Source of the DNA: Candidatus Limnocylindria bacterium
Lineage (GTDB): Bacteria > Chloroflexota > Limnocylindria > QHBO01
DNA length: 64,000 nt
Direction: 5' to 3'
Assembly: GCA_038255505.1 (NCBI GenBank)
Contig: JBBSLF010000001.1
Location: 2,549-66,548 of the forward strand
Part shown: positions 7,148-38,695 of the stretch, piece after piece
Layout of the letters: each line of letters begins with the position of its first letter
Position numbering within the stretch: the first letter of the stretch is position 1
Translations under genes and position numbers: made by a program
The notes under the pieces: model-generated
Seen by the model: only the letters and a program-made list of their open reading frames with translations
Told to the model about the DNA's origin: nothing
The model's database searches: none

Positions 7148-8299
7148 ATGCGAAGACATCCCAGCGCGATGGTGGCCATGCTGGCCATCGTGATGCTGAT
7201 CTTGGCCGCCTGCAACGGCGGCGGCGAGAGCCCAGCGGCCAGCGATCCTGCGTCGATGGCACCCGAGTCAATGGCACCCGAGTCCATGGCACCAGAGTCC
7301 GAGGCTCCGGACGAGAGCGCCGAGGCGGCCACCATCAAGGCCTGCATGGTCAGCGATGTCGGCGGCATCGACGACAACAGCTTCAACGAGAACGCCTGGC
7401 TCGGGATGGAAGAGGCCAGCGATGAGCTGGGCGCCGAGGTGAGCTTCCTCGAGTCCCGCTCCGCGGAGGACTACGCGCGCAACATCGACCAGCACATCTC
7501 CGATGGCTGCGACATGATCATCACCGTCGGCTTCCTCCTCGGTGATGCCACCGCGGCCGCCGCAGAGGCGAATCCCGACACGCGCTTCGCGATCGTCGAC
7601 TTCGCGTACGATCCGGCGCTCCCGAACGTCGAGGGCCTGGTCTACAACACCGCCGAGGGCGCGATGCTCGCCGGGTACGCTGCCGCCTCCTGGTCGAAGA
7701 CCGGGATCATGGGCACCTTCGGCGGCATCAACATCGGTCCGGGAGTGACGGACTTCATGGACGGCTTCATCGCCGGCATGAACTACTACAACGAGCAGAA
7801 CGGGACCGAGGTCCGCATGCTCGGCGGCCGCGATCCGAACAATCCCGACTCGGGCACGTTCACGGGCAACTTCGATAGCACCGACGACGCGAAGAACGTC
7901 ACCCTCGGCATGCTCCAGGAGGGCGCCGACGTGATCCTCCCGGTCGGAGGACCGATCGGTCAGGGCACGTTCGCGGCGATCGACGAGCAGAGCGCCGATG
8001 CGGTCGGCCTTGGCGTCGACGTCGACTGGACGCTGACCGTGCCCGAGTTCAGCGAGTATATGCTCACGAGCGTCATCAAGCGCATCGATAACTCGGTCTA
8101 CCAGGCCATCGAGCGCGCGATCAACGGGGAGGAGCCGGAGCCGGTCTTCGTCAGCACACTCGAGAACGAGGGCGTGGGCATCGCCCCGTTCCACGACTAT
8201 GAGGACGAGGTCTCGCAGGAGGTCAAGGACGCGATCGATGAGATGTCGGCGGCGATCATCGCCGGTGACCTCAGCCCGTCCGACTACTACGGCGAGTGA
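7148..8299 (+). CDS. BMP-family (PnrA/Med-like) ABC substrate-binding lipoprotein, probably nucleoside-binding
   Basis: GGAGG RBS then ATG at 7148. Lipobox LILAAC. Repeated SMAPESMAPESMAPES linker. BMP core KACMVSDVGGIDDNSFNENAWLGMEEA. Confidence 0.85.
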   Translation: MRRHPSAMVAMLAIVMLILAACNGGGESPAASDPASMAPESMAPESMAPESEAPDESAEAATIKACMVSDVGGIDDNSFNENAWLGMEEASDELGAEVSFLESRSAEDYARNIDQHISDGCDMIITVGFLLGDATAAAAEANPDTRFAIVDFAYDPALPNVEGLVYNTAEGAMLAGYAAASWSKTGIMGTFGGINIGPGVTDFMDGFIAGMNYYNEQNGTEVRMLGGRDPNNPDSGTFTGNFDSTDDAKNVTLGMLQEGADVILPVGGPIGQGTFAAIDEQSADAVGLGVDVDWTLTVPEFSEYMLTSVIKRIDNSVYQAIERAINGEEPEPVFVSTLENEGVGIAPFHDYEDEVSQEVKDAIDEMSAAIIAGDLSPSDYYGE

Positions 8300-8348
8300 A
8301 GTGAGGGCGGTGGATTGCCCGGCGCGGGCATGAGCCGCTGAGTATCCT

Positions 8349-8382
8349 GAACGGGCGGCGTCGTCAACGGCGCCGCCCGTTC
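8349..8382. terminator. Perfect 12-bp GC stem (GAACGGGCGGCG/CGCCGCCCGTTC) with 10-nt loop, between the binding-protein and ATPase genes. Attenuator/terminator-like hairpin.
   Basis: Seen in the sequence. No U-tract. Confidence 0.35.
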
Positions 8383-8404
8383 GTATCATCGGAGCCGTCG
8401 CACC

Positions 8405-9973
8405 GTGAAGCTCGAGCTGCGGGGGATCACCAAGCGCTTTCCCGGGGTCGTGGCCAACGAGGACGTGAACCTCGTCGTCCAGCCGGGGGAGATCCATGCG
8501 CTCCTCGGCGAGAATGGCGCAGGCAAGACGACGCTGATGAACGTCCTGTACGGGCTCTACCTGCCCGACGAGGGCGAAATTCTCATCGACGATCAGCCCC
8601 GGGAGTTCGACGGGCCCGGTGATGCAATCGCGGCGGGCATCGGCATGGTCCACCAGCACTTCATGCTCGTGCCGGTGTTCACGGTCACCGAGAACGTCAT
8701 GCTCGGCATGGAGTCGACGCGAGGCCCAATCGGGCAGCTCGACAAGCCGGCGGCCCGCCGGCGGATCATGTCGATCTCCGATCGCCACAGGCTGCACATC
8801 GACCCTGATGCGGTCGTCCAGAACCTGCCGGTCGGCGTCCGCCAGCGGGTCGAGATCGTCAAGACGCTCTATCGATGGTCCGAGGTCCTGATCCTCGACG
8901 AGCCGTCCGCCGTCCTCACGCCGCAGGAAACGGTGGAGCTCTTTGAGATCATGCGTTCGCTGGTCGAAGCGGGCACCTCCATCGTTTTCATCACCCACAA
9001 GCTCAACGAAGTGCTCGAGGTCGCGGACCGGATCACCGTGCTGCGGCGCGGCACCGTTGCCGGCACGACGACGCCAGCCGAGACGAGCCGGGAGGAGCTG
9101 GCCGCGATGATGGTGGGACGCGACGTCCAGCTCGTCGTGGACCGCAAGCCGGCCACGCCGGGCGAGGCGGTCCTCGAGGTTCGCGACCTCGTGGTCCGCG
9201 ACGATCGCGGTCACAACGCCGTCGACCACCTCGACCTGACGGTGCGCGCCGGCGAGATCGTCGCGATCGCGGGCGTGCAGGGCAACGGACAGAGCGAGCT
9301 CGTCCAGGCCATCACGGGGCTCGCGGAGCCGGATTCCGGCGAGATCCGGCTCGGCGGCGAACCACTGGCCTCCAGCCCGCGCGAGGTCTACGAGGCCGGT
9401 GTCGCGCACGTTCCGGAGGACCGAATGGAGGATGGGCTCATCGCCGAGTTCACCGTCGCCGACAACCTCGTCCTGAACGCCTACTTGAACCCGCCGTATG
9501 CCTCCCGGCTGCGGCTGGACGGTGACGCCATCGTGGCCAACGCCGAGCAGCTGGTCGGCGAGTACGACGTCCGGACGCCGTCGATCTTCAATCCGGTCGC
9601 CAACCTGTCGGGTGGCAACCAGCAGAAGGTGATCGCAGCGCGGGAGTTCTCGAGGCCGATTCGTCTCATCGTCGCCGCACAGCCGACGCGCGGCCTGGAC
9701 GTCGGTTCGATCGAGTACATCCACCGGCGCATCGTCGCCAAGCGCGACGAGGGAGCCGCCGTGCTCATCGTCTCGAGCGAGCTCGACGAGGTCGTCGCGC
9801 TGGGCGACCGCATCGCGGTCATGTACCAGGGACGAATCGTGAATACGCTCGATCCGGGAGAGGCGACGTTCGAGCGCCTGGGCCTGTTGATGGGCGGTGC
9901 CCACGCCGCCGAGGACGGTGGCGACCGCCGGGAACCGGTGGCCTCGACGCCGGAGGCGGATGCTCGTGGCTGA
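8405..9973 (+). CDS. ABC transporter ATP-binding protein with two ATPase domains (simple-sugar/nucleoside uptake type)
   Basis: Two Walker A (GENGAGKTT, GVQGNGQSEL) and signature (LSGGNQQKV) sets. 522 aa. Follows the BMP binding protein. Confidence 0.85.
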   Translation: MKLELRGITKRFPGVVANEDVNLVVQPGEIHALLGENGAGKTTLMNVLYGLYLPDEGEILIDDQPREFDGPGDAIAAGIGMVHQHFMLVPVFTVTENVMLGMESTRGPIGQLDKPAARRRIMSISDRHRLHIDPDAVVQNLPVGVRQRVEIVKTLYRWSEVLILDEPSAVLTPQETVELFEIMRSLVEAGTSIVFITHKLNEVLEVADRITVLRRGTVAGTTTPAETSREELAAMMVGRDVQLVVDRKPATPGEAVLEVRDLVVRDDRGHNAVDHLDLTVRAGEIVAIAGVQGNGQSELVQAITGLAEPDSGEIRLGGEPLASSPREVYEAGVAHVPEDRMEDGLIAEFTVADNLVLNAYLNPPYASRLRLDGDAIVANAEQLVGEYDVRTPSIFNPVANLSGGNQQKVIAAREFSRPIRLIVAAQPTRGLDVGSIEYIHRRIVAKRDEGAAVLIVSSELDEVVALGDRIAVMYQGRIVNTLDPGEATFERLGLLMGGAHAAEDGGDRREPVASTPEADARG

Positions 9974-11189
9974 AGCCGCCACGGCCGAGCGTGACAGCCG
10001 GCTGGGGTCCACCCTGCGCGGTATTCTCCTGCCATTCCTTGCGCTGCTCGCCGCGTTCGCGGTCGGCGCGATCATCATCGTGGTCACCGACTTCGAGCTG
10101 CTCGGCCTCTGGGCCTCGGACCCGATCGCGGCGCTCGGTGCCTCATGGTCGTCGGTCGCCGCCACGTACGGCGCCCTGCTGGGCGGATCGATCGGCGATC
10201 CCAGCCAGCTCATCGGCGCCCTCCTTGCGCTCGATTGGGCTGGCGTGCGGCAGGCCTTCAATCCCCTGTCGGAGACGATCGTCTCGGCGACGCCGCTGAT
10301 CTTCACCGGGCTGTCGGTGGCGCTCGCGTTCCGCGTTGGCCTATTCAACATCGGCGCCGAGGGACAGCTGTATCTCGGTGCGCTGTTCGCCGTGATCGCC
10401 GGATTCAGCTTCGCGGGGCTTCCCTGGTTCATCCACGTGCCGATCGCCGTGGCCGCCGGCTTCCTTGGCGGCGCGCTGTGGGGCCTCATTCCCGGGTTCC
10501 TCAAGGCCCGGACCGGTGCCCACGAGGTCATCGTCACGATCATGCTGAATTTCGTGGCGTACAACCTCATCAACTGGGCGCTCAAGACGGAGCTCGTCCA
10601 GCGCGAGGGACGCCCCGACCCGATCTCGAAGATCGTCCAGCCGAGCGCGGTGATCCCGGCCCTCATCGAGGGCCTACGCGCAAACTGGGGCATCGTCATC
10701 GCTCTGCTGGCGGCCGTCGCCGTGTGGTGGCTGCTGTTCCGCTCGACGAAGGGCTTCGAGTTCCGGGCCGTCGGCTTGAATCCGCGCGCCGCGCGCTACG
10801 CCGGGATGAGCATCGCGTGGTCGACCGTGCTCTCCATGGTGATCGCGGGAGGGCTCGCCGGACTGGCGGGCGCCGTGGTCATCCTCGGAGGCTCGGGCAC
10901 GCTGTCTCCCGGATTCTCACCCGGCTACGGCTTCGACGGCATCGTCGTCGCCCTCGTCGGCGCGACGCGTCCGCTGGGCGTGGTCGCGGCCGCGTTCCTG
11001 TTCGGAGCGCTCCGTGCCGGCGCCACGCCGATGCAGGCAGCGACAGGAACCCCGCTCGACCTCGTCGTGGTCATCCAGGCGTTGGTCATCATGTTCATCG
11101 CCGCGCCGGCCCTCGTGCGCGCGATCTTCCGCATTCAGGCCGAGCGGCGCACGGGCACCGACGTCTTCGCCAAAGGGTGGGGCTCGTGA
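9960..11189 (+). CDS. ABC transporter permease, first of two (BMP-type system)
   Basis: ATG at 9960 overlapping the ATPase stop. Polytopic TM protein. Start uncertain by a few codons. Confidence 0.75.
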   Translation: MLVAEAATAERDSRLGSTLRGILLPFLALLAAFAVGAIIIVVTDFELLGLWASDPIAALGASWSSVAATYGALLGGSIGDPSQLIGALLALDWAGVRQAFNPLSETIVSATPLIFTGLSVALAFRVGLFNIGAEGQLYLGALFAVIAGFSFAGLPWFIHVPIAVAAGFLGGALWGLIPGFLKARTGAHEVIVTIMLNFVAYNLINWALKTELVQREGRPDPISKIVQPSAVIPALIEGLRANWGIVIALLAAVAVWWLLFRSTKGFEFRAVGLNPRAARYAGMSIAWSTVLSMVIAGGLAGLAGAVVILGGSGTLSPGFSPGYGFDGIVVALVGATRPLGVVAAAFLFGALRAGATPMQAATGTPLDLVVVIQALVIMFIAAPALVRAIFRIQAERRTGTDVFAKGWGS

Positions 11190-25556: not shown

Positions 25557-25582
25557 GCGGCCATGCTACCGCGATTTTCGAT

Positions 25583-25629
25583 GCGCAGCGGGAGTGCCGC
25601 AGGGGGGAACCACGGCACTCCCGCTGCGC
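25583..25629. terminator. Perfect 17-bp-stem hairpin (GCGCAGCGGGAGTGCCG ... CGGCACTCCCGCTGCGC, 13-nt loop) between the 925-aa gene and the PIG-L gene
   Basis: Seen in the sequence. No flanking U-tract. Confidence 0.4.
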
Positions 25630-25667
25630 AGTCTACCCGTCCTCCGAGCGGACAAGCCCTCGCCCTG

Positions 25668-28445
25668 TCACTCGCCGAACATCGTCAGCTGCTCGCCCCC
25701 GCGCTCGATGAGCGGGTCCAGCCCGAGCACCGGTTCCAGCCATTCCATCTTGGCTCCGGGCCGTCCCGCAAGCGTGTCAAGATGCTGCCACTTCAGCACA
25801 TGCCAGTTCTGGCGTTCCATCTCTTCCCGGAGCCAGGGGGAGCGATCCAGCTTCAACCGAAGCAGCTCGGTCCGTTCAGCCGGGACGACCAGGAACCGCG
25901 CCTGCTGGTCGGTCACCGCGATCTGCCGGCCACGGTCCAGGACCGCGTCGCCGATCATCACCGTCCATTCGACCTCGAACAGAAAGGCGAGCTTGCCGCG
26001 AACGTACCAGATGACGTCGACCGAGCCGAGCGCCTCGGCCGGGGCCCGAACGACCAGGGGCAGGTACACGCGACGTTCATCGTCCCCTAATTGCTCGGCG
26101 ATGCGACGGCCGTCGACCACGCGGTCATGCTCGCGCGCCGCGACCCAGGTGTGCATCCCCAGCCTGTGCCCGTAGTCCACCAGCGTCGCGATGGTCCGAG
26201 CATGATCCGCCGTCCGAGCTGCAAGATCATCGGCCGTGGCGAGCGATCCACGCTCTCCGGGCGCCGCGTACGATGCCAGGCACGCGCGCACCAGCTCCTC
26301 ATCCGGTGCCTGGAGCCCGGGAAACAGCCGGTAGATACGATCGAAGAAACCCGCTTCGTCAATCCGACCTGCGGTCGACAGGATCGACCAGGTGGCCCAC
26401 TCGACTCGGTCGGCCAGGGGACGTTCGGCCAGCTCCGGCGTGCGAAGCCACCAGCTAGGATTGTTCTCGTCGCCGATACGGACAAGGGTCGGATGATCGG
26501 CCCGCCACAGCTCTTCGCGGATGAGATTCGCGAGAAACTGTGGTCCACCGGCCTCGATTCTGTCGGTCCCCTCCTGGACCGCACCGCCACGCTGAAGCGC
26601 CAGCCGGCGGAGCAGGTCCGTGCGTCCCAGCTCGGCCACGATGGCGGCCACGACGCGCGTCAGGCCGGCGGGCTCGCCACGGTCGCGCAGCAGCGCGGTG
26701 ACCGCGCGCTCCATCGCCGATGCCAGCTCAGGATACGTCAGGTGCCCGGACTCGGCACCCAGCCGCAACGGGCTCGGACGCACTGCGTGACGAAGCCGAT
26801 CCTCCGCGGAGGGCTTGCGAAAGTGCAGGACGATCCCATCGCCAGATCTGGCCGATTCACGATGCATGACGTCGACCAGTTGGAGCCCGGCCGCGGCAGC
26901 GGCCAGCGCCACCGACACGAGCCGGTCGGGGTCACCACCATCGATGATGAGATTGCACCAGCCGCCCGGTTTGAGCGCGCCGGCCGCCGAGACAAGGCCA
27001 TGACGCAGAGCGGTGACCTCGGCGCCATCCGCCTGGCCCCCGGATCCGAAGATCGGCTCGAGGCGCAGGGTCTCGGCGGCCTCCCGTCCGAGCACCCAGC
27101 CGGTGGCGAGGTATTCGAATGACAGGTCGTCGATGGAGCCGCCCATGGGCGGAGAGCCGAGGACCAGGTCGACGCCCTCGGTGGGCAGGTACTGGCCGAC
27201 CACGGCCGGACGGCTCCGCAGCCACAGGACGTTGGCGGCGCCCACGCCCCCGAGCTCGGTGAAGTCAGCCGCAAATCGGGTCTCGTGCCGGCCTTGGCCC
27301 ACCGCGCCCACGGCCGTCCTGACGTCGCGATACGCCTCTTCGAACGCCTGCCAGACGTTGACTTCGCGCTGGTGACGGCTCGCCGGCTGGCGCACGTGGC
27401 CATTGCTGATACGAAGCGACGCGACGCGCCCGGGGTAACCATTCAGGCGGCTGGCCGGCAGGAGGCATGCCGCCAGCGCCAGGCGCATGACGGCGAGGGT
27501 GCCGGGGTCACGCAGCTCGGAATCGATCTTGGCGCCGATGGCGTGGAGCGCATACAGGTTGCGCGGCGTGAACAGGTCGAGCAGCTCCTCCACCAGGTCG
27601 TCCTGTGCATCGAGCACGGGGAAACGAGATCGGAGGTCGAGGTACTGCGGACTTTGGCGCAGCCCATCCGCCGCCACCAACGGCATGGGATCCGGTCGGA
27701 CGGTCGAAGCAAAGCGGGGCCGTGCCCCGATCGGTGTGGGCAGGTCGACCGCCAGGGGCGGCGGCGGCGGCGGTTCTCCTCCTTCGCCGAGCGCATCGGG
27801 ATCATCCGACAGGCCGGTCAGGCCGGTCAGGCCGACGGCTGCCGCCGGCAGCTCGTCCGGGGCGTTATCGGCAGCGATGACGTCCTCGGCGGCAGGGGCG
27901 CTGTCGATCCCCAACTTGGCCAGGTCGACCTCATCGACCGCGGCGACCCGATCGCCGGATCCGCCGATGGCTGCCTCGCACGTCGGGCAGCGGAAGATCT
28001 TCCGACCCGGCGCATCCGCATCGCGCGGCCAGATGAACTGGTCGACAAGCACGGGGCGACGGCAGGCGCCGCAGCGGGAGGCGTACAGCTCCTCGATGTG
28101 CTGGCGCAGCGGGACATCGACGCGCCGCGATCCGGCCAACTGCGCGAACGCGGCGTCGAGCACCGCCGGCTCCGGTGCGGAGATAAACGCGATGGCGGCC
28201 ATCTGCGCGAACGGGCTCGGGTCGGCGGCAACGGATCGCATGCCGGCCGCCACGGCGCGCCGCGCGGTCCAGCCGGTGCCGGCCCACGGGTCGAGCACGG
28301 TATCGCCGGTCGCCGCGAAGGCGGCGAGCTCCGCATCAAGGAGGTTGTCGGACGGTGGCGGAAGCAGACGCTCGAGCAGCGCCAACCCCGGAAGGCGTCG
28401 GGGGAGGATGACGTGATCGAGACCGGTGCGCCCCGTGTCGCTCAT
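25668..28445 (-). CDS. Large (925 aa) hypothetical protein with split SAM-methyltransferase-like motifs, an inserted zinc ribbon, a Pro-rich linker, and a C-terminal domain of unknown (possibly nuclease-like) fold
   Basis: Motif I-like VLDPWAGTGWTARRAVAAG at residues about 45-65. CGACRRP...CPTCEAA zinc ribbon. PPPPPP linker. Motif IV-like LVLGSPPMGGS near residue 445. C-terminal DVIWYVRGKLAFLFEVEW segment. Last gene of the polX operon. Confidence 0.55.
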   Translation of the reverse strand: MSDTGRTGLDHVILPRRLPGLALLERLLPPPSDNLLDAELAAFAATGDTVLDPWAGTGWTARRAVAAGMRSVAADPSPFAQMAAIAFISAPEPAVLDAAFAQLAGSRRVDVPLRQHIEELYASRCGACRRPVLVDQFIWPRDADAPGRKIFRCPTCEAAIGGSGDRVAAVDEVDLAKLGIDSAPAAEDVIAADNAPDELPAAAVGLTGLTGLSDDPDALGEGGEPPPPPPLAVDLPTPIGARPRFASTVRPDPMPLVAADGLRQSPQYLDLRSRFPVLDAQDDLVEELLDLFTPRNLYALHAIGAKIDSELRDPGTLAVMRLALAACLLPASRLNGYPGRVASLRISNGHVRQPASRHQREVNVWQAFEEAYRDVRTAVGAVGQGRHETRFAADFTELGGVGAANVLWLRSRPAVVGQYLPTEGVDLVLGSPPMGGSIDDLSFEYLATGWVLGREAAETLRLEPIFGSGGQADGAEVTALRHGLVSAAGALKPGGWCNLIIDGGDPDRLVSVALAAAAAGLQLVDVMHRESARSGDGIVLHFRKPSAEDRLRHAVRPSPLRLGAESGHLTYPELASAMERAVTALLRDRGEPAGLTRVVAAIVAELGRTDLLRRLALQRGGAVQEGTDRIEAGGPQFLANLIREELWRADHPTLVRIGDENNPSWWLRTPELAERPLADRVEWATWSILSTAGRIDEAGFFDRIYRLFPGLQAPDEELVRACLASYAAPGERGSLATADDLAARTADHARTIATLVDYGHRLGMHTWVAAREHDRVVDGRRIAEQLGDDERRVYLPLVVRAPAEALGSVDVIWYVRGKLAFLFEVEWTVMIGDAVLDRGRQIAVTDQQARFLVVPAERTELLRLKLDRSPWLREEMERQNWHVLKWQHLDTLAGRPGAKMEWLEPVLGLDPLIERGGEQLTMFGE

Positions 28446-28465
28446 CGGCCCCTCGTCATCGGCCG

Positions 28466-29386
28466 CTAGTGCTCTTCGGCGAGCTCCTCTTCGTCCTCTG
28501 GCTCACCCGAGTACTCGGGGAGTGTCGTGTCGAGCTCCTCGACCTCTTCGGAGTCCTCATCGGCTTCCTCAACCTCTTCGTCGTCATCGTACCGAAGTGC
28601 GCTGCCCTTCATGTACGGTCTGACGCCAGGTCCCGTCTGCCCGAGCGTGGGAAACGAAACTTTGCCGAAGTTGGTGGGATGCGTGAAGACCTCGCGAACG
28701 ATGATGGTCAGCTCGCTGCCGGGCTCGTTGACGGTCGTGATGGCGGCTTCATACCGATTCCCACTGGCGATGAGCTTGAACAGACGCACCGCAATGCGCG
28801 GCTCGACGCTTCCGATCACCGTGCCCCCGACGCGGGCCACCAGTTCGTCGTTCTCGACCTCCAGGTCGACGGCGTCACCGGGTGACCGCCGAGCCAGGAC
28901 GCTTGGCCCTGCCAGGTTGATAAGGCGCGCGCGTCCCGTCTTCCCCATCTCCTCGATGAAGACCGTGGCCGGCGCCTTGCCCGGGCTCTGCTTGCCGTTG
29001 GAGGCCGGACGCTCGGCGGTGGCCATCAGGCGGAGCCGCTCGATGTTGCGCAGTGCGATGCGATTCGTGGCGTCGCGTTCCAGGGCACCCTCGTAGGCGA
29101 TCAGCGCCTCGTCATGCCTGCCGAGCTCCGCGAGCGCTTTGCCGAGCCTGTTGTGCGCGTCGATGTCCGGGCCGAGTTCGAGGAGACTACGGTTCGCGGT
29201 GACCGCCGCCTCCCACTCGCCGCGCGTGGCATGCGCGATGGCGGCCTCGCCGAGCTGCCGTCGTCGTCGGGTCGTGGTGTCGGCTTCTCCAAGCGCCATG
29301 GGGCTTGTGCACGTCTCCGCTGTGGTGATTCGGGCGGCCAACCGGCCGAGGGCGAACCTTGTACCACCGGCCATTGGGGGTGTCAA
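28466..29386 (-). CDS. Hypothetical TPR-repeat protein with a strongly acidic C-terminal tail
   Basis: TPR-like helical repeats (NRLGKALAELGRHDEALIAYEGALERDATNRIALRNI). Central beta-rich domain. Tail DDDEEVEEADEDSEEVEELDTTLPEYSGEPEDEEELAEEH. 20 bp upstream of the 925-aa gene. Confidence 0.5.
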   Translation of the reverse strand: MTPPMAGGTRFALGRLAARITTAETCTSPMALGEADTTTRRRRQLGEAAIAHATRGEWEAAVTANRSLLELGPDIDAHNRLGKALAELGRHDEALIAYEGALERDATNRIALRNIERLRLMATAERPASNGKQSPGKAPATVFIEEMGKTGRARLINLAGPSVLARRSPGDAVDLEVENDELVARVGGTVIGSVEPRIAVRLFKLIASGNRYEAAITTVNEPGSELTIIVREVFTHPTNFGKVSFPTLGQTGPGVRPYMKGSALRYDDDEEVEEADEDSEEVEELDTTLPEYSGEPEDEEELAEEH

Positions 29387-29413
29387 CGCGACACCTCCAC
29401 TGCGGCGAATTGC

Positions 29414-30190
29414 TCACGGTCGATAGACGAACAGCCCCACGGCCAGGCCGAGAAGAACGAGCGCCCCGAACTCCACGGCCACGGAGCGACCGGAGGCACC
29501 ACCGCCGAGCGCGTCCACGGCGCCAGCCCACGTATAGAAGGCGAGGGCCAGCAGGGCGGCCGTGACGATCAGTGGCAGGTCAAGCACCACTGCGCCGGCA
29601 CCAACCTGGGCGACGACCAGGACATGCAGCAGAGCCTGTCCGAATGCCTCGGCGCCAAGCGTCCCGCGCGCCTCGGCCGCACGTTGGGCGAGAGGAAGCA
29701 CGAGGATCACGACCAGGATCAGTGGTGTTGGCCAGGTCTGCGTGCCGAATAGCGCCAACAGACCCGCCGAGCCCGCGAAGGTGATCGCCGTCAATTGCAG
29801 GTCGCCGAGCGTGCGGCCTCCCGTGCCGCGCTCGATGCGCATCTCGAGATACGTCACCGACCACAGGATCACGCCCACAATCGGCACCAGCAGGAGGCTC
29901 ACGCCGCCGGGAATCAGGCGCCCGAAGAGCGTCGCCGCAATGCCGGCGGTGGCGGGGATGGCGTACCGCGACAGGCCGAGCTCACCGCGAGCTGGACCGA
30001 TGACGCGCACGGCTCCGATGCCTCCCAGCGCCAGCTGCACGGCGATCGCAACCGACAGCCAGATGGGATCGGAGAACCAGCCGATCGCGGCAACCAGTGC
30101 CTGCGCCGCCGCCAGCATGACGGCAGCCGGACGATCGATGCGGCGCAGGACCGCCAGCCGGCGCGGATCTCCAAAGAGCCGGCTGATCAT
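29414..30190 (-). CDS. Hypothetical polytopic membrane protein (6-7 TM)
   Basis: ATG (MISRLFGDP) overlaps the polX stop (ATGA at 30187-30190). Hydrophobic throughout. Confidence 0.5.
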   Translation of the reverse strand: MISRLFGDPRRLAVLRRIDRPAAVMLAAAQALVAAIGWFSDPIWLSVAIAVQLALGGIGAVRVIGPARGELGLSRYAIPATAGIAATLFGRLIPGGVSLLLVPIVGVILWSVTYLEMRIERGTGGRTLGDLQLTAITFAGSAGLLALFGTQTWPTPLILVVILVLPLAQRAAEARGTLGAEAFGQALLHVLVVAQVGAGAVVLDLPLIVTAALLALAFYTWAGAVDALGGGASGRSVAVEFGALVLLGLAVGLFVYRP

Positions 30191-31938
30191 CGAACCGTCT
30201 CCAGCAACTGCTCGGCCGTGCGCGTGACAAGCAGTTGATCGGGACCAAGCCACGCCCGGCGCGCGATGTCCACGGCGTAGCGCTGCTGAGTGAGTTCCTC
30301 GGTGCGATGCGCGTCAGATACCAGCGTCAGGCGGGCACCGGCACGGCCGGCGGCGCGTGCCAGCGCGTCATCCAGGTCGAGTCGCGGGCTGCCGTTGATC
30401 TCGAGCGCGGTGCCGGTACGTGCCGCTGCCTCGAAGACGCGCGGCCAGTCGAGCGGCAGGGCGTCTCGCCGGTTGACGATCCGACCCGAAGGATGAGCCA
30501 GCACGTCGACGTGCGGGTGCTCGATGGCGGCGATTGCGCGCCGTGTCAACTGCTCAGAGGACTGACCGCGGCCGGTATGGATGCTGGCTATCACGATGTC
30601 GAAGCGCGCCAATAGCTCGTCGGAATAGTCGAGCGTCGCATCGGCCCGGATCTCAAGCTCGGTGCCATGCAGGATGCGGAACGGGGCGAGCTCGCCATTC
30701 AGCCGCGCGATCTCGGTGCGCTGCTCCTCAACGCGCTCCGGGATGAGCCCGCGCGCCACGCCAAGCGAGGGCGAGTGATCGGTCAACACCATGTACTCGT
30801 GGCCAAGGTCGCGCGCTGCGCGGGCCATGACCTCGATCGAGTCGACGCCATCGGTCCAGTCCGAATGGGTGTGGGTGTCGCCGCGCACATCGGCGCCGGT
30901 GACGAGCACTGGCAGCGTGCCGGCCATGGCCGCGGCGATCTCGCCATCCCCCTCGCGCATCTCGGGCGCGATCCAGGGCAGGCCGAGCCGTTCATACACG
31001 TCGACCTCTTCCGCGTCGAGCAGCAGCTCGCCCGTCTCGAGCACCTTGAAGCCCTTCTCCGACAGAGACCAGCCGCGATCGAGCGCCATGCCGCGCAACG
31101 TGATGTTGTGATCCTTGCTGCCGGTGAAGTGCACCAGGTGCGTCCCCCACGTCTCGGGCGGACAGACCATGAGGTCAACGCGCGGACCATCGCGCAGGAT
31201 GATGCTCGACTTGTCCGTCCCGGCCGAGATGATCTTGTCGACCTCCGGCATGCCGTCCAGCGCCGCAATGACCGCGGCTGGATCGTCAACGGCGGCCAGG
31301 ACATCCAGGTCGCCGATGGTCGAGCGTCGACGCCGCAGCGACCCGGCCTGCTCGATTCGATGGACGCCGGATACGTCGCGCAAGTGGTCGACCAGCCTGG
31401 CCACCAGCGCATCGGCGTCGTGAATGAGCAGCCGCGTGCTGCGCCGCTCGATCCGGCCGATGCCATCCAGGATGTTCTGCTCCGTCCGAGCCGAAAGCCC
31501 TTTCACGTGGCGCAGGCCGCCGGACTCCGCGGCTGCACGCAGGCTGTCGAGCGATTCGATTCCGAGCTCGGCATGGATCAGCTTCACGGTGCGCGGGCCG
31601 ACGCCGGACACCTGGAGCATGTCGAGCAGCCCGTCCGGCACCTGGGCGCGAAGGCGTTGGTGATACTCGAGGCGGCCGGTCTCCGACAGCTCGGCCAGCT
31701 TCGCGGTCAGCGCCGCGCCCGCGCCCGGCAGCTTCGGCGGCTCGCCGCGACGGAAGAGCGCCGCCACATCCTCCGGATAGCGCTCGATCACATCGGCGAC
31801 CCGACGGTAGGCAACGGCCTTGAACACCACCTCGCCCTGGATCTCGAGCATGTCCCCGATCTCGTTGAAAATGCGAGCCAGTTCGGAATTGGTGATCGTG
31901 GTGCCGCTGCTGCGCGACACGCTTCGGGGTCGAGGCAT
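30187..31938 (-). CDS. polX: DNA polymerase X family protein with C-terminal PHP phosphoesterase domain
   Basis: N-terminal Pol-beta-like region (NSELARIFNEIGDMLEIQGE, HhH GVGPRTV). PHP motifs DTHTHSDWTDG and TDHSPS. 583 aa. Confidence 0.85.
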   Translation of the reverse strand: MPRPRSVSRSSGTTITNSELARIFNEIGDMLEIQGEVVFKAVAYRRVADVIERYPEDVAALFRRGEPPKLPGAGAALTAKLAELSETGRLEYHQRLRAQVPDGLLDMLQVSGVGPRTVKLIHAELGIESLDSLRAAAESGGLRHVKGLSARTEQNILDGIGRIERRSTRLLIHDADALVARLVDHLRDVSGVHRIEQAGSLRRRRSTIGDLDVLAAVDDPAAVIAALDGMPEVDKIISAGTDKSSIILRDGPRVDLMVCPPETWGTHLVHFTGSKDHNITLRGMALDRGWSLSEKGFKVLETGELLLDAEEVDVYERLGLPWIAPEMREGDGEIAAAMAGTLPVLVTGADVRGDTHTHSDWTDGVDSIEVMARAARDLGHEYMVLTDHSPSLGVARGLIPERVEEQRTEIARLNGELAPFRILHGTELEIRADATLDYSDELLARFDIVIASIHTGRGQSSEQLTRRAIAAIEHPHVDVLAHPSGRIVNRRDALPLDWPRVFEAAARTGTALEINGSPRLDLDDALARAAGRAGARLTLVSDAHRTEELTQQRYAVDIARRAWLGPDQLLVTRTAEQLLETVR

Positions 31939-32040
31939 CGGTCAATTCTAGGGCGGTCTTCCCCGGATACGCCCAGCGCACAATTTCGCCTGAGCTTTCG
32001 CCGCTCCTGGAGCCGGATGATGCGGATCGGCTCCCGTTGA

Positions 32041-32209
32041 GTCATATGCCGTCATGGCGGGCATTAGGCGCGAAAGCGCGTCAGCAGCTGCCGGTTCTGA
32101 GCGTGGCCGAGCCTGATCTGGCCCCCATCTGCCGGCTAATGCCCGCCGGCGCGGCGTATGACCCAGCGCGCGCCGTCGTGGGAACTAATGCCGTCCGCAC
32201 GGGCATCAG
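32041..32209. repeat. Cluster of three copies of a roughly 28-bp element (consensus about CTAATGCCCRCC-N5-8-GTCATATGAC). Two are in inverted orientation (32041-32072 and 32136-32164), forming a MITE/REP-like about 125-bp unit. A third variant lies at 32185-32209.
   Basis: Seen in the sequence. Located about 100-270 bp upstream of the polX operon start. Confidence 0.5.
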
Positions 32210-35221: not shown

Positions 35222-35842
35222 TCACGAGGCCCGAAGGACGCCTTCGAGGCGCAGGAGGAAGCGCTTTCGGTCGAGGCCGCCGGTGTAGCCGCCCAGTCCG
35301 CCGCCGGCATGGAGGACGCGGTGGCACGGCACGACGATCGGCACGGGATTCGAGCCGAGCGCGTTCCCGGCCGCGCGATACGCATTCGGCGAGCCAGCCT
35401 CGGTCGCAATCTCGCGATACGAGGAGACTCCCCCGAACGGGATGTGCGCGGTGGCCCGCAGGACGGCGCCGGCGAAGCCGCGGACGAGGCGCCAGTCGAT
35501 CGGAACGTCGAACGCGCGACGCGTGCCCGCGAAGTAATCATCGAGCTGGCGACGGACCTCGTCTGTGCGCTCGGGTGCGGACATGATGCGGGGCGAGATG
35601 ATGGCGGCCAGCTCCGCGAGCTGCTCTTCGACCGCCTCGTGTGCATATGACAGCCTCACCAGGCCTCGCGGCGTGACCATGACGGTCAACGGACCGAGAG
35701 GCGAATCGTATGTGCCATGGGCCACATCAAGCAGGCCATCGGTCCCGGCCCGCCGTGCAAGCGTCGTGCGCAGGCGGTCGAGATCGAGCGGAGGGACGGA
35801 CCCGGCAGCATCGGCCAGGCGGCGCTCGAGGTCATCGGTCAT
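35222..35842 (-). CDS. ogt: Methylated-DNA--protein-cysteine methyltransferase
   Basis: Active-site VPCHRV motif in the C-terminal domain. Confidence 0.85.
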   Translation of the reverse strand: MTDDLERRLADAAGSVPPLDLDRLRTTLARRAGTDGLLDVAHGTYDSPLGPLTVMVTPRGLVRLSYAHEAVEEQLAELAAIISPRIMSAPERTDEVRRQLDDYFAGTRRAFDVPIDWRLVRGFAGAVLRATAHIPFGGVSSYREIATEAGSPNAYRAAGNALGSNPVPIVVPCHRVLHAGGGLGGYTGGLDRKRFLLRLEGVLRAS

Positions 35843-36419
35843 TGGTGGTCACCTCGCGGCGCAGCCGCCGCAGGCCGGCGCGGACATTCTGGCGCGCGGC
35901 CTCCTCGCTGATGCCCATGCGCTCCCCGACCTCGACGTAGGCAAGGTCCAGCACGAACCGATGCACCACCGCCGCGCGCTGCTTGGCCGGCAACGATCGC
36001 ACGCGCAGCCAGAGTTCGTCATCGCCCGGTGGCGCACTCGGGGGCGCAACCGGCTCGATGCCGTCGAGGTCCCGCGTCGGACGGCGTGCCGTGCGTCGGA
36101 TGACATCGGTCGCTTTGCGCTGCGCGATCGTATACAGCCAGGCACGGAGGTTGTCGCCATGGCGAAGTCTCGGGTAGGCGCGCAACGCGGACATGAAGGT
36201 CTCCTGGACGCAGTCCTCCGCCTCGGTCGGACCGACAAGGCCCACCAGAAACCGATGCAGCTCACGGGCATGAGCATCGATCAGCGTCTCGAACGGCGGG
36301 AGCTGCACACCTGGTGAAACGCCGCGACGCGGGGTCACGTGAGATCGGACTACCGGATCGCCTCGACCTCGATGTCGAGATCGAGCGAATTCCAGGCCCG
36401 ATCCGGCGTGCGAACTCAA
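35832..36419 (-). CDS. ECF-subfamily RNA polymerase sigma-70 factor
   Basis: Region 2 (ELHRFLVGL...DCVQETFMSALRAYPRLR...RAWLYTIAQRKATD) and region 4 (LPAKQRAAVVHRFVLDLAYVEVGERMGISEEAARQNV). True start is probably an internal GTG. Overlaps the ogt start. Confidence 0.75.
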   Translation of the reverse strand: MSSHAGSGLEFARSRHRGRGDPVVRSHVTPRRGVSPGVQLPPFETLIDAHARELHRFLVGLVGPTEAEDCVQETFMSALRAYPRLRHGDNLRAWLYTIAQRKATDVIRRTARRPTRDLDGIEPVAPPSAPPGDDELWLRVRSLPAKQRAAVVHRFVLDLAYVEVGERMGISEEAARQNVRAGLRRLRREVTTNDR

Positions 36420-37096
36420 CCGGCCGCGCGACGGACGAAGTCCTCGATGGCGGAGGGGTCATCGGCTTCCACGAATGTGACGCCGCCGGCCGGGGTGTCG
36501 TCGGGCCGCCAGCCGATCGTGATGCCGGGGTTCTGGTCGTTCGTGCCATCGGACGCAAACAGATGCGCCGCACCGCGCACCTCATCCCCTCGAGCGACAG
36601 CCCAGTCGTCGAAAACGGCACGGCGCGCGCGCCCGTCATCGAGCGCCGCGGCGAGTGTTGCCACATCCAGCGAGTCGCATTCGTTGGCGACCTCGAGGAT
36701 GACGTGGCGCAGGCTGATGCAGCGGCTCTCGCCCCAGAACGCGCGGCGCAGTGCACGGTCGAGCTCCTCCGACGCGGTGAGTGACTGGAGCTTGGCGGCC
36801 AGCACGGCCTCCATCGGCGGCAGGAGTGTCACCGGCCAGGCGTCGTCGGGCGCCGACCATGCCTGCCATCCCGCACGCGGTGCCAGCTCGGCCGCCGCGG
36901 GCCGATCGGCCTCACGCTGCGATCGCGGTGTCGGCTCATTGTTGAACAGCTCGAGCGGGAAGACATGATGGTCGAACTTGACCTTTCCCTCGAGGCCGAG
37001 GCGCCGGCGCGCGTCGTGGAGGCGCCACACGACGGCATGGGACCAGGGGCAGCCCAGATCGGACCATACGGCGATCGTGTTCGGGGCGACGTGCAT
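36416..37096 (-). CDS. DsbA-like thioredoxin-fold protein with CPWS (single-Cys) active-site variant
   Basis: IAVWSDLGCPWSH N-terminal motif. ATG at 37094-37096. Confidence 0.6.
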   Translation of the reverse strand: MHVAPNTIAVWSDLGCPWSHAVVWRLHDARRRLGLEGKVKFDHHVFPLELFNNEPTPRSQREADRPAAAELAPRAGWQAWSAPDDAWPVTLLPPMEAVLAAKLQSLTASEELDRALRRAFWGESRCISLRHVILEVANECDSLDVATLAAALDDGRARRAVFDDWAVARGDEVRGAAHLFASDGTNDQNPGITIGWRPDDTPAGGVTFVEADDPSAIEDFVRRAAG

Positions 37097-37100
37097 CGGC

Positions 37101-38063
37101 TCAGTCAAGAGTGAAGTAGTCGCCGCCCGAGTAGCGCCCGGTGCGCTCCTTGCGGATCTGCATGAGCACGTCATTGAGGAGACTGGATGCCCCGAATCGG
37201 AACAGGTTCGGGGTCATCCACTGCGGGCCGAGTGTCTCGTACAGCGTTGTCAGGTAGCTGATCGCCTCCTTCGCGGTCCGGATGCCACCCGCCGGCTTCA
37301 TGCCCACGACGCGACCGGTCTGCGCATGAAAGTCGCGGATGGCCTCCAGCATGACGAGGGTCACGGGCAGCGTCGCGGCCGGCTGGATCTTGCCGGTCGA
37401 GGTCTTGATGAAGTCGGCTCCGGCCGCCATGGCCAGGACCGATGCACGCCGTACGTTGTCGTACGTCTCCAGCTCGCCGGTCTCCAGGATGACCTTGAGA
37501 TGCGCGTCGCCGCAGGCGGCCTTGACCTCGATGATCTCGTCATAGACCGATGCGTAATCGCCCGCCAGGAACGCGCCCCGGTCGATGACCATGTCGATCT
37601 CATCGGCTCCCGCTGCCACGGCGCCTCGCACATCCGCGAGCTTGACCTCGAGCGGCGCCTGGCCGGATGGGAAGTAGGTCGCGACCGATGCGACCTTCAC
37701 GTCGGAGCCTTTGAGTGCCTCCACCGCGAACGGGATCATGTTGGGGTAGACGCACAGCGCGGCGACGGAGGGGATACTCGGGTCGGTCGGATCAGGGCGC
37801 CGTGCCTTGCCCGCCAGCGCGCGGATCTTGCCCGGCGTGTCCTTCCCCTCCAAGGTGGTGAGGTCCATCATTCGGATCGCGAGGTCCAGCGCCCAGAGTT
37901 TCGCGTCCTTCTTGATGGAGCGCTTCGCGAGCGAGGCAGCGCGCTCCTCCACACCCACGGCGTCAACCGCCCACACGCGACCCAGCAGGGACCCGAGGTG
38001 TTGGTGGCGCTTGCTCGTGAGGTCGCGACGCTCGTTGCGGCGGACGGGAGTGGTGGCTGTCAT
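37101..38063 (-). CDS. deoC: Deoxyribose-phosphate aldolase (long/class-II type)
   Basis: Schiff-base lysine motif FIKTSTGK, and DMVID. ATG at 38061-38063. Confidence 0.85.
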   Translation of the reverse strand: MTATTPVRRNERRDLTSKRHQHLGSLLGRVWAVDAVGVEERAASLAKRSIKKDAKLWALDLAIRMMDLTTLEGKDTPGKIRALAGKARRPDPTDPSIPSVAALCVYPNMIPFAVEALKGSDVKVASVATYFPSGQAPLEVKLADVRGAVAAGADEIDMVIDRGAFLAGDYASVYDEIIEVKAACGDAHLKVILETGELETYDNVRRASVLAMAAGADFIKTSTGKIQPAATLPVTLVMLEAIRDFHAQTGRVVGMKPAGGIRTAKEAISYLTTLYETLGPQWMTPNLFRFGASSLLNDVLMQIRKERTGRYSGGDYFTLD

Positions 38064-38110
38064 GGGCCGATCATTGTAGCGCCCGGACGACTGGTACCCT
38101 TCGATCACCC

Positions 38111-38482
38111 ATGGCCGCCGATCCGATTCTCTACTGCCTCACGCGCGACCGCGACCTCGCCATCGGTGTCGACGCGCGGCTGTCCGGGGCGATCGCGTTC
38201 TTCTTCAACGACGCGGCACGCCTGCACCAGGCGGTCACCCTCCGCGCGCCGCAGTTCGTGGTCGTCGACACCGGAGCCGTGCGAGCCGAGTTCGGCGATG
38301 CTGGATTGGGTCCGGTCTTCGACTTCCTGCGACATCGTGTGCCCGACGCAGGGCTCTCCGTCCGACCAACGCCCGGGGTCGAGCATCTCATCTCCGCGGA
38401 GGCGGGTGCGGATGTGACTCTCCTGCCTTCGGCGCTCGACGCGTGCGTGGACGCGGTGGCCGCACAGTGCGGCTGCGCCTGA
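38111..38482 (+). CDS. Hypothetical protein (123 aa)
   Basis: Protein-like composition with high GC3. Divergent from deoC. No recognisable motif. Confidence 0.3.
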   Translation: MAADPILYCLTRDRDLAIGVDARLSGAIAFFFNDAARLHQAVTLRAPQFVVVDTGAVRAEFGDAGLGPVFDFLRHRVPDAGLSVRPTPGVEHLISAEAGADVTLLPSALDACVDAVAAQCGCA

Positions 38483-38517: not shown

Positions 38518-38695
38518 GGGTCATACGACCACCTGCGCGTCATATGACCAAACCACGACTGCCGTTCGCTCAAACGCCGTGGTGACGGGCAATAGGTGAG
38601 AGATTCAGTGCTGATGGGTCGCGCCCACGCTCAGTCGCCGACGGTTCGACCCAATTCTCCCAGCTAATGCCCACCAGCGCGTCATATGACCAAAC
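38518..38695. repeat. Second cluster of the GTCATATGAC-containing repeat family. A near-perfect 24-bp direct repeat (CACC[T/A]GCGCGTCATATGACCAAAC at 38530-38553 and 38672-38695), the second copy preceded by CTAATGCCC.
   Basis: Seen in the sequence. Related to the 32041-32209 repeats. Confidence 0.5.

Follow-up and report, generated by a model that had tools for sequence, protein, structure and literature searches.

Bacterial family-X DNA polymerases (PolX) have been surveyed for their motifs and gene neighbourhoods, and the main text of this survey, in which the word 'Chloroflexi' was not found, reports ZapA, MutS2 and CvpA-type neighbours in Bacilli and Clostridia, LigD in Alphaproteobacteria and stand-alone PHP proteins in Deinococci, as well as noncanonical PolXs that are polymerase-dead (PMC9226535). 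Among restriction enzymes, NmeDI is a type II endonuclease, R.NmeDI being a stand-alone protein of 351 aa (PMC2095814). Binding to the beta sliding clamp follows the consensus QLxLF, which is typically found at protein C-termini (PMC4549789), and in EndoMS/NucS a clamp motif couples cleavage to replication (PMC6159521, PMC6159515). Here, we analysed a 64,000-nt stretch of a Candidatus Limnocylindria genome (contig JBBSLF010000001.1; hereafter, the window), in which four minus-strand genes at 25668-31938, considered together with their flanks, encode a PolX, a membrane protein, a tetratricopeptide repeat (TPR) protein with an acidic tail and a 925-aa protein with methyltransferase-like and nuclease-like parts. 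We found that the order of these four genes is kept throughout Limnocylindria, and that the 925-aa protein appears to have lost its catalytic methyltransferase motif and has, like most of its relatives, a candidate clamp-binding peptide at the C-terminus. The corresponding neighbourhood or family was not described in the literature that we searched.

The four-gene locus and its conservation

An initial annotation of the window had described four co-directional minus-strand genes spaced like a single transcription unit, and all four open reading frames (ORFs) were recovered. The ATGA overlap between the polX stop and the start of the membrane gene lies at 30187-30190, and the same four-nucleotide overlap occurs in the independent gene calls of relatives; the 20-bp gap between the TPR stop and the start of the 925-aa gene is likewise as described, and it is 6 bp in L001 and L002 and 6-20 bp in clade A. 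In contrast, the TPR gene had been annotated as an ORF of 306 aa beginning 27 bp after the membrane gene, and both figures had to be revised. Its start is fixed at the ATG at 29299 (MALGEADTTT...) by alignments A2 and A9, by three relatives that align perfectly from it, and by identical 277-aa entries in other assemblies, and the actual gap is 114 bp, which is non-coding because it carries indels between relatives, including in the DNA downstream of the internal promoter described below. A TTG at 29386 was rejected as the TPR start, since it is the first base of the conserved TTGACA -35 hexamer of that promoter. The G+C content of the window is about 67% with no local anomaly in a composition scan, and its proteins are 70-100% identical to proteins from metagenome-assembled genomes of Candidatus Limnocylindria or Chloroflexota.

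The initial annotation had proposed looking for the neighbourhood in related genomes, and the order polX-membrane-TPR-925 is indeed kept there. When one genome per GTDB species was scanned with degenerate patterns, relatives of the 925-aa protein were detected in at least 567 species genomes, and the best 80 of these are all Limnocylindria with identities of 62-77%; an exhaustive HMMER search at E <= 1e-3 placed at least 1243 representative clusters (50% identity) in the family, whose distribution in other Chloroflexota classes is read from a few contigs. The polX, membrane, TPR and 925 genes are collinear wherever a Limnocylindria locus extends far enough upstream to tell (about 70 of 70 informative loci), and the membrane gene follows polX in all loci. 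This order is kept in loci that do not have the downstream PIG-L/ABC genes (L044, L049, L052, L055-L057, L059, L066 and L068) as well as in loci where 1-4 kb of inserted genes separate polX from the aldehyde dehydrogenases. It is also kept in a sister clade of clade A, where the identities to the window proteins fall to about 53% for PolX, 47% for the TPR protein and 36-40% for the 925-aa protein, and where the order reads GGDEF, polX, membrane, TPR, (DinB_2 on the opposite strand), 925-like, DUF885. Homology between the two clades extends to all four components, including the membrane protein (hhalign probability 93%, E = 2.7e-7, 222 columns). On this comparison, the gene order outlives full turnover of the flanks, and since unrelated genes stand between the members in the sister clade, co-transcription is apparently not required. 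By the same sequence evidence the 925 gene is a core-like chromosomal gene in a fixed housekeeping context that appears to be vertically inherited.

The gene inserted at the TPR/925-like junction of the sister clade is consistently a DinB_2 (DinB/YfiT-like) gene on the opposite strand (L006 8981-9877, L090 11191-12135, L091 11153-12100), and one member of this clade carries further inserts, HipA_2/DUF3037 and an acyltransferase.

The proteins of the locus

The initial annotation had called the 925-aa protein methyltransferase-like with a zinc ribbon, and this description is borne out. Its statement that three of the four products belong to no recognisable family was, however, too strong: it holds for the membrane protein, which has no match in Pfam, NCBIfam, PADLOC or PHROGs, and fails for the 925-aa protein, which we read as a divergent N6/N4 methyltransferase fold followed by a putative NmeDI_C-type C-terminal domain. 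An AlphaFold2 (AF2) model built from 56 sequences has a mean predicted local distance difference test (pLDDT) score of 85.6 and a predicted template modelling score of 0.84; fold searches with it returned only methyltransferases, and the model has a class I Rossmann methyltransferase fold. In an alignment, the DPWAGTG loop falls on the FxGxG of M.RsrI and TTHA0409, and D75, which is the acidic residue behind strand 2, does not vary among 21 orthologues. Over 56 family members, the first cysteine pair of the zinc ribbon (C125, C128) is invariant and the second (C153, C156) is conserved to at least 90%. The catalytic motif IV is degenerate: no Limnocylindria sequence has an aromatic residue after the PP (the variants being GSPPM, GAPPP, AAPTP and SAPAA), and in the 21 orthologues the first position is S or A and the fourth M, P, V, A, I or Q. 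The window protein scores 13.1 bits against the N6_N4_Mtase family (PF01555), below the gathering score of 26.7, whereas the most distant full-length members of the family (P0221, P0250 and P0259; 21-25% identity) combine DPFxGSG with FTDPPY and score 73-77 bits. Judged by its motifs and its model, the 925-aa protein is thus a permuted N6/N4 methyltransferase fold in which the catalytic DPPY is lost. The insert between its motifs contains an acidic, proline-rich linker (residues 188-257) that is disordered in the AF2 model, and residues ~570-740 form two helix-helix-helix-strand-strand units, which by secondary-structure order only are apparent winged-helix domains. We found no match to DUF1156 (Zn-ribbon DNA methylases of the DUF1156/COG1743 type) in this protein or in P0221, P0250 and P0259.

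The last domain of the 925-aa protein consists, in the AF2 model, of a helix, three strands, a helix and a strand. D810 precedes the strand 811-815, E824-V-E826 is located where the strand 818-825 ends or just beyond, and a helix (832-841) and a strand (849-854) follow, so that by sequence and predicted secondary-structure order the acidic residues are placed as in PD-(D/E)xK nucleases. Such an E-x-E variant of the (D/E)xK element resembles BamHI. D810 is invariant and V825 and E826 are at least 90% conserved in alignment A5, and both clades with the PolX/TPR neighbourhood have retained D810, E824 and E826. Precomputed Pfam matches of this domain to NmeDI_C (PF27126) are weak or faint in the window clade and bear no such mark (E <= 1e-5) in P0145, P0250 and the L090 protein.

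The C-terminal peptide of the 925-aa protein reads ...ERGGEQLTMFGE, and its extreme end ...LGLDPLIERGGEQLTMFGE, including the QLTMF, is invariant in the 21 orthologues. A peptide of the form Q[LIM]x[LM][FL] is found among the 16 C-terminal residues in 46 of the 56 diverse members, and among the 20 C-terminal residues in 50 of 59 full-length representatives at the level of 50% clusters. In the model, confidence drops from residue ~911 and pLDDT is below 50 for residues 922-925. QLTMF matches the beta-clamp-binding consensus and is accordingly a candidate for such a motif. In a census of the same 59 representatives, 3 still have DPPY and about 25 the F-E-V-E-W-T nuclease motif, and nearly all have the zinc ribbon. 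The retention of the terminal motif and of the zinc ribbon, while both DPPY and E-x-E are lost, points to clamp docking and a DNA-reading scaffold as the probable constants of the family, with catalysis lost repeatedly. Within the family (P0121-P0270), the loss of both catalytic signatures is stepwise and recurrent, and resembles a large radiation of pseudo-enzymes, mostly in Chloroflexota.

The TPR protein has Pfam TPR matches, and its helices form the helical hairpins of such repeats. In the AF2 model, the five TPR helices have pLDDT values of about 90, the beta domain, built of strand-strand-helix-strand units with an invariant P-G-D, has values of 70-84, and the tail falls below 50. Although disordered, this acidic tail (RYDDDEEVEEADEDSEEVEELDTTLPEYSGEPE...) is unusually conserved for a disordered region, and its part at window positions 28469-28591 (residues ~237-277) contains an invariant EEVEELD(T/S)(T/S)LPE. 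The best structural matches of the TPR module include TPR domains of co-chaperones that bind EEVD peptides. These matches, together with the acidic motif, hint that the tail may be bound by the protein itself or by a partner.

PolX is a canonical enzyme by every feature that we compared. It scores 470.6 bits against the NCBIfam equivalog NF006375 (cut-off 426) and is colinear end to end with Thermus thermophilus PolX 3au2 (residues 16-580 against 2-567, E = 6e-121). By the motif criteria given in the survey (PMC9226535), its GSLRR (GSxRR), its GDLDVL and VDL acidic triad (D-x-D...D) and its FTGSKDHN (TGSKxH) align with those of the T. thermophilus enzyme, and we rejected its identity as a noncanonical, polymerase-dead PolX as all three motifs are intact. 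The membrane protein has about 6-7 hydrophobic segments in its hydropathy profile.

Promoters, terminator and flanking elements

The initial annotation had read the locus as a single tight operon, which fits poorly with what we found: the TPR gene has a conserved putative promoter of its own, in addition to the separation of the members in the sister clade. The positions of the two promoters and of the other features are listed in Table 1. Upstream of polX, a TAGAAT hexamer (P1) is found 6-8 nt ahead of the ATG in all of about 65 clade-A loci whatever the upstream context, and in many of these loci the terminator of the preceding gene lies immediately upstream of it. No Shine-Dalgarno sequence was seen in the 40-55 nt upstream of polX, either in the window or in about 65 related loci. 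The presence of TAGAAT so close to the ATG in any upstream context points to a leaderless-type promoter, and suggests that polX is transcribed as a leaderless mRNA. The second promoter, P2, is read as an internal sigma-70-type promoter of the TPR gene. Its hexamers are invariant and the middle of its spacer is variable in 24 close loci, a strict pattern recovers it in 45 of 73 loci at 88-121 nt before the TPR ATG, and TACAAA replaces TACAAG in deeper branches. Only 27 nt separate the stop of the membrane gene from the -35 hexamer of P2, which leaves no room for a terminator, and read-through from P1 into the TPR and 925 genes is therefore plausible.

Behind the 925 gene, the perfect 17-bp hairpin of the initial annotation is present and somewhat longer than stated, with at least 18 perfect pairs and 21 pairs in the minimum free energy (MFE) structure. 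An uninterrupted stem of at least 13 pairs occurs within 100 nt of the 925 stop in most clade-A loci, as compared with 10.5% of 100-nt segments drawn at random from these loci. From these sequence features, the locus is best described as a two-promoter unit that ends at one terminator rather than as a single tight operon.

Table 1. Positions of the genes, protein motifs and non-coding elements of the locus in the window
Feature	Position	Strand	Remarks
27-nt motif, copy 1	32041-32067	-	upstream of polX, inverted with respect to copy 2
27-nt motif, copy 2	32136-32162	+	upstream of polX, inverted with respect to copy 1
27-nt motif, copy 3	38664-38690	+	
P1, TAGAAT -10 hexamer	31945..31950	-	6 nt upstream of the polX ATG, putative leaderless-type promoter
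polX	30187..31938	-	583 aa, canonical bacterial family-X DNA polymerase with PHP domain
Membrane protein	29414..30190	-	258 aa, polytopic, start overlaps the polX stop (ATGA)
P2, putative internal promoter	29358..29386	-	TTGACA (29381-29386), 17-nt spacer, TGn + TACAAG (29358-29366)
TPR protein	28466..29299	-	277 aa; TPR helices at residues 3-95, small beta domain at 112-205, acidic tail at ~219-277
925-aa protein	25668..28445	-	predicted methyltransferase fold with zinc ribbon, two apparent winged-helix domains, PD-(D/E)xK-like domain, tail with candidate clamp motif
Motif I (S-adenosylmethionine-binding loop), DPWAGTG	28272..28292	-	residues 52-58, invariant in 21 Limnocylindria sequences
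Zinc ribbon, CxxC...CxxC	27978..28073	-	C125, C128, C153, C156
Degenerate motif IV, S431-P-P-M434	27144..27155	-	after strand 425-430, where active relatives have DPPY
PD-(D/E)xK-like motif, D810...E824-V-E826-W-T828	25962..26018	-	
QLTMF, candidate beta-sliding-clamp-binding motif	25677..25691	-	residues 919-923
Terminator-like hairpin	25582..25631	-	after the 925-aa gene; MFE -58.9 kcal/mol, z = -5.0

The spacer behind the 925 gene varies among relatives. In some it holds an opposite-strand Methyltransf_11 or CsoR-like (Trns_repr_metal) gene (L001 12888-13553, L002 8699-9031), and in the window (25557-25667) and in L092 it consists solely of the 111-bp hairpin spacer.

A cluster of GTCATATGAC-type repeats had also been noted just upstream of polX. 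The cluster itself comes down to two imperfect boxes, and the 10-mer is not enriched in the window (22 matches with at most 2 mismatches, against 15.5 +/- 4 expected); both boxes are nevertheless parts of a genuine 27-nt composite motif, CTAATGCCCRCC-N7-CRTATGAC, with 3 copies in the 64 kb against 0 expected. The two copies upstream of polX form a 43-nt imperfect inverted repeat. The third copy lies in the intergenic region at 38.4-38.7 kb, beside two more GTCAT[A/C][T/C]GAC palindromes (38520-38548), and in every copy there is an ATG from which a peptide MP[AT]xx[AS]YD would start. As a feature of the locus the repeats are not conserved: no box of the 27-nt motif occurs within 400 bp upstream of polX in any of 69 related loci, and for this reason we rejected a regulatory role of the GTCATATGAC boxes in the module. 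The 326-bp spacer is shared by the nearest relative, L092 (97% identity of the proteins), where the boxes carry point mutations, and in other close relatives polX lies just 40-76 bp from the aldehyde dehydrogenase gene. By this comparison, the 27-nt motif is a lineage-specific repeat that is seemingly decaying in the nearest relative and lies outside the conserved module; it may be a small repeat element or the operator of a local regulator.

The ogt gene that had been noted near the locus was found at 35222-35842. It encodes Methyltransf_1N and DNA_binding_1 domains on the minus strand and overlaps the end of an extracytoplasmic function (ECF)-type sigma-70 gene (35832-36419), with a DsbA-like gene upstream (window 35222-36419). 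The sigma-ogt pair is also present in L092, and this pairing in both suggests that ogt is under ECF sigma control. Elsewhere in the window, two ORFs of 1143 aa (7268-10699, minus strand) and 479 aa (36978-38417, plus strand) match no Pfam family at E <= 0.001.

Possible role of the locus and comparison with known systems

We tentatively favour, on the whole, a class-wide two-unit gene block that carries a domesticated, clamp-tagged methyltransferase-endonuclease. In such a block, the TAGAAT leaderless-type promoter would drive polX and the translationally coupled membrane protein, and the second promoter (TTGACA-17-TGnTACAAG) would drive the genes for the TPR protein with its acidic tail and the 925-aa protein, with the strong hairpin ending the unit. 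The 925-aa protein would be a domesticated, chromosomally fixed descendant of a fused restriction-modification methyltransferase-endonuclease, with D810/E824/E826 of its putative nuclease domain intact and a flexible C-terminal QLTMF peptide, and its role is most likely that of a clamp-tethered DNA endonuclease or a DNA sensor. Through its QLTMF tail the protein may attach to the sliding clamp where DNA is being replicated or repaired; the DNA may be read by the winged-helix units together with the dead methyltransferase, and nicked or cut by the putative NmeDI_C-type domain. The TPR protein, with its DNA-like acidic tail, could be a partner or an inhibitor of the 925-aa protein, and PolX, by gap filling, 3'-5' exonuclease and apurinic/apyrimidinic (AP)-endonuclease activities, could process the product. 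The initial annotation had suggested a membrane-associated modification or repair system; modification is unlikely given the degenerate catalytic motif of the methyltransferase, and none of our tests points to the membrane protein as making the system membrane-associated.

A number of points weigh against this interpretation. The clamp binding, the nuclease activity and the contacts among the four proteins are all things that we infer from sequences. The NmeDI_C assignment comes from precomputed Pfam hits, a profile of the C-terminal 186 residues matched nothing among PDB sequences or in a Pfam set without PF27126, and the fold searches, with methyltransferase matches alone, did not reach the C-terminal domain. 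The E-x-E motif is lost in about half of the diverse family members, and nuclease activity is therefore not a constant feature of the family. As to the neighbourhood, unrelated genes separate the members in the sister clade, one contig carries TPR-949aa-DUF885, and the ~1 kb that it has upstream of TPR contains no polX, and homologues of the 925-aa protein at about 30% identity adjoin a HIT or HD gene, with neither TPR nor PolX. Part of the conservation may also be plain synteny, as the aldehyde dehydrogenase and PIG-L/ABC genes are widely kept in clade A too.

The last point can be pressed further, to the view that the region rearranges slowly and the four genes share nothing beyond inherited synteny, having unrelated housekeeping functions and forming no module. 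The flanking aldehyde dehydrogenase and PIG-L/ABC genes are indeed syntenic over most clade-A loci, the sister clade tolerates the DinB_2, HipA_2/DUF3037 and acyltransferase inserts, remote 925 homologues adjoin HIT, HD or AAA_15 genes, and the TPR gene has its own promoter. However, the order survives where GGDEF and DUF885 stand in place of the aldehyde dehydrogenase and PIG-L flanks at 36-53% protein identity, and it also survives the loss of the downstream PIG-L/ABC genes; moreover, polX and the membrane gene are translationally coupled, and TPR and 925 lie close together throughout clade A. We consider synteny alone unlikely. Somewhat more probable, though still rather unlikely, is the view that the 925-aa protein is a catalytically inert, clamp-docked DNA-binding factor that organises or regulates replication rather than a repair nuclease, with a logic like that of SeqA, YabA or Hda, the dead methyltransferase serving only as a reader of a sequence or methyl mark and the adjacency to polX being incidental or reflecting shared timing of expression. 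The census agrees with this view, since what stays constant over the 59 representatives is the zinc ribbon and the clamp motif (50/59) rather than DPPY (3) or F-E-V-E-W-T (~25), and so do the degenerate motif IV of all Limnocylindria sequences and the core-like character of a gene with relatives in at least 567 species genomes. On the other hand, the strict conservation of D810, E824 and E826 in both clades with PolX/TPR linkage argues for retained catalysis there, and the linkage to a repair polymerase persists over deep divergence.

That the 925-aa protein is instead a working single-chain restriction-modification or anti-phage enzyme (type IIG/IIC-like) and the cluster a defence island is, in our judgement, highly improbable. 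The combination of a methyltransferase with a putative NmeDI_C-type endonuclease domain is in keeping with such an enzyme, PADLOC gives weak MTase_II matches (best 3e-8), and the active-looking distant member P0250 stands beside an AAA_15/AAA_21 ATPase. But the catalytic (D/N/S)PP(Y/F) motif is lost in the window protein, which scores well below the N6_N4_Mtase cut-off (13.1 against 26.7), and its inheritance is vertical over at least 567 species in a fixed housekeeping context, hence not patchy or horizontal. There is neither a composition anomaly nor a neighbouring defence gene, PADLOC finding nothing in the cluster beyond the generic MTase_II and PHROGs no match of phage origin. Our literature search found no clamp-binding methyltransferase or restriction enzyme, and to our knowledge no restriction enzyme has been described with a clamp-binding tail. 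With motif IV dead, the gene vertically inherited and its surroundings of a housekeeping kind, this is the least likely explanation. Returning to the domesticated methyltransferase-endonuclease, a broader and more speculative proposal would be that Limnocylindria, and possibly many Chloroflexota, perform a hitherto unrecognised replication-coupled DNA surveillance in which the clamp-tethered protein, with a dead methyltransferase and a live PD-(D/E)xK nuclease, would scan DNA that has just been replicated, be gated by the TPR protein through a tail that mimics DNA, and hand its nicks or gaps to PolX, a NucS-like function of independent origin; as a whole, we regard this proposal as improbable.

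If the candidate clamp-binding tail and the putative nuclease are functional, a restriction-modification enzyme would have turned into a core chromosomal gene, and bacterial PolX, whose cellular partners are poorly known, would gain a concrete and conserved genetic context in a large uncultured lineage of soil and freshwater. In addition, the 925-aa family is unnamed save for one recent Pfam domain, and its stepwise loss of both catalytic sites with the clamp motif kept makes it a useful case of pseudo-enzyme evolution.

Among described systems, the window PolX is the component closest to its known counterparts, namely T. thermophilus 3au2 and B. subtilis YshC, with the 8-kDa/helix-hairpin-helix, fingers, palm triad, thumb and PHP regions all colinear; its surroundings differ, in that no set of membrane, TPR and methyltransferase-like genes is among the PolX neighbourhoods that we found described in the survey (PMC9226535). 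The TPR protein recalls the three-TPR co-chaperones that bind EEVD (HOP TPR1, CHIP, FKBP51/52 and Sti1), but it has about 2.5 repeats, its acidic motif is internal rather than at a free C-terminus, it carries an attached small beta domain, and its context contains no chaperone. With the beta-class N6/N4 DNA amino-methyltransferases (PF01555; M.RsrI 1eg2, TTHA0409 2zie), the 925-aa protein shares the predicted Rossmann fold and the DPxxGxG loop; however, its motif order is permuted, motif I being N-terminal and separated by about 380 residues from motif IV, with the zinc ribbon, a helical insert and a disordered acidic and proline-rich linker in the interval, and DPPY is degenerate. Like the single-chain type IIC/IIG fusions, and with a C-terminal domain that precomputed Pfam scans assign to NmeDI_C, it joins an apparent methyltransferase fold and a PD-(D/E)xK-like domain in one polypeptide, but it differs from these enzymes as the product of a core chromosomal gene, with a dead methyltransferase, a candidate clamp-binding tail and no cognate methylase or specificity subunit nearby. 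EndoMS/NucS, the clamp-activated mismatch endonuclease of Actinobacteria and Archaea, is much smaller (~230 aa), has another N-terminal DNA-binding domain, and is without a methyltransferase fold, zinc ribbon or TPR partner; Pfam and NCBIfam scans gave no match to the NucS family at E <= 0.1, and no sequence relationship was detected. The likeness to NucS thus lies solely in the logic of a nuclease plus a clamp motif, and if both the tail and the nuclease of the 925-aa protein are functional, the replisome would have recruited a restriction-type nuclease for a second time, independently of EndoMS/NucS.

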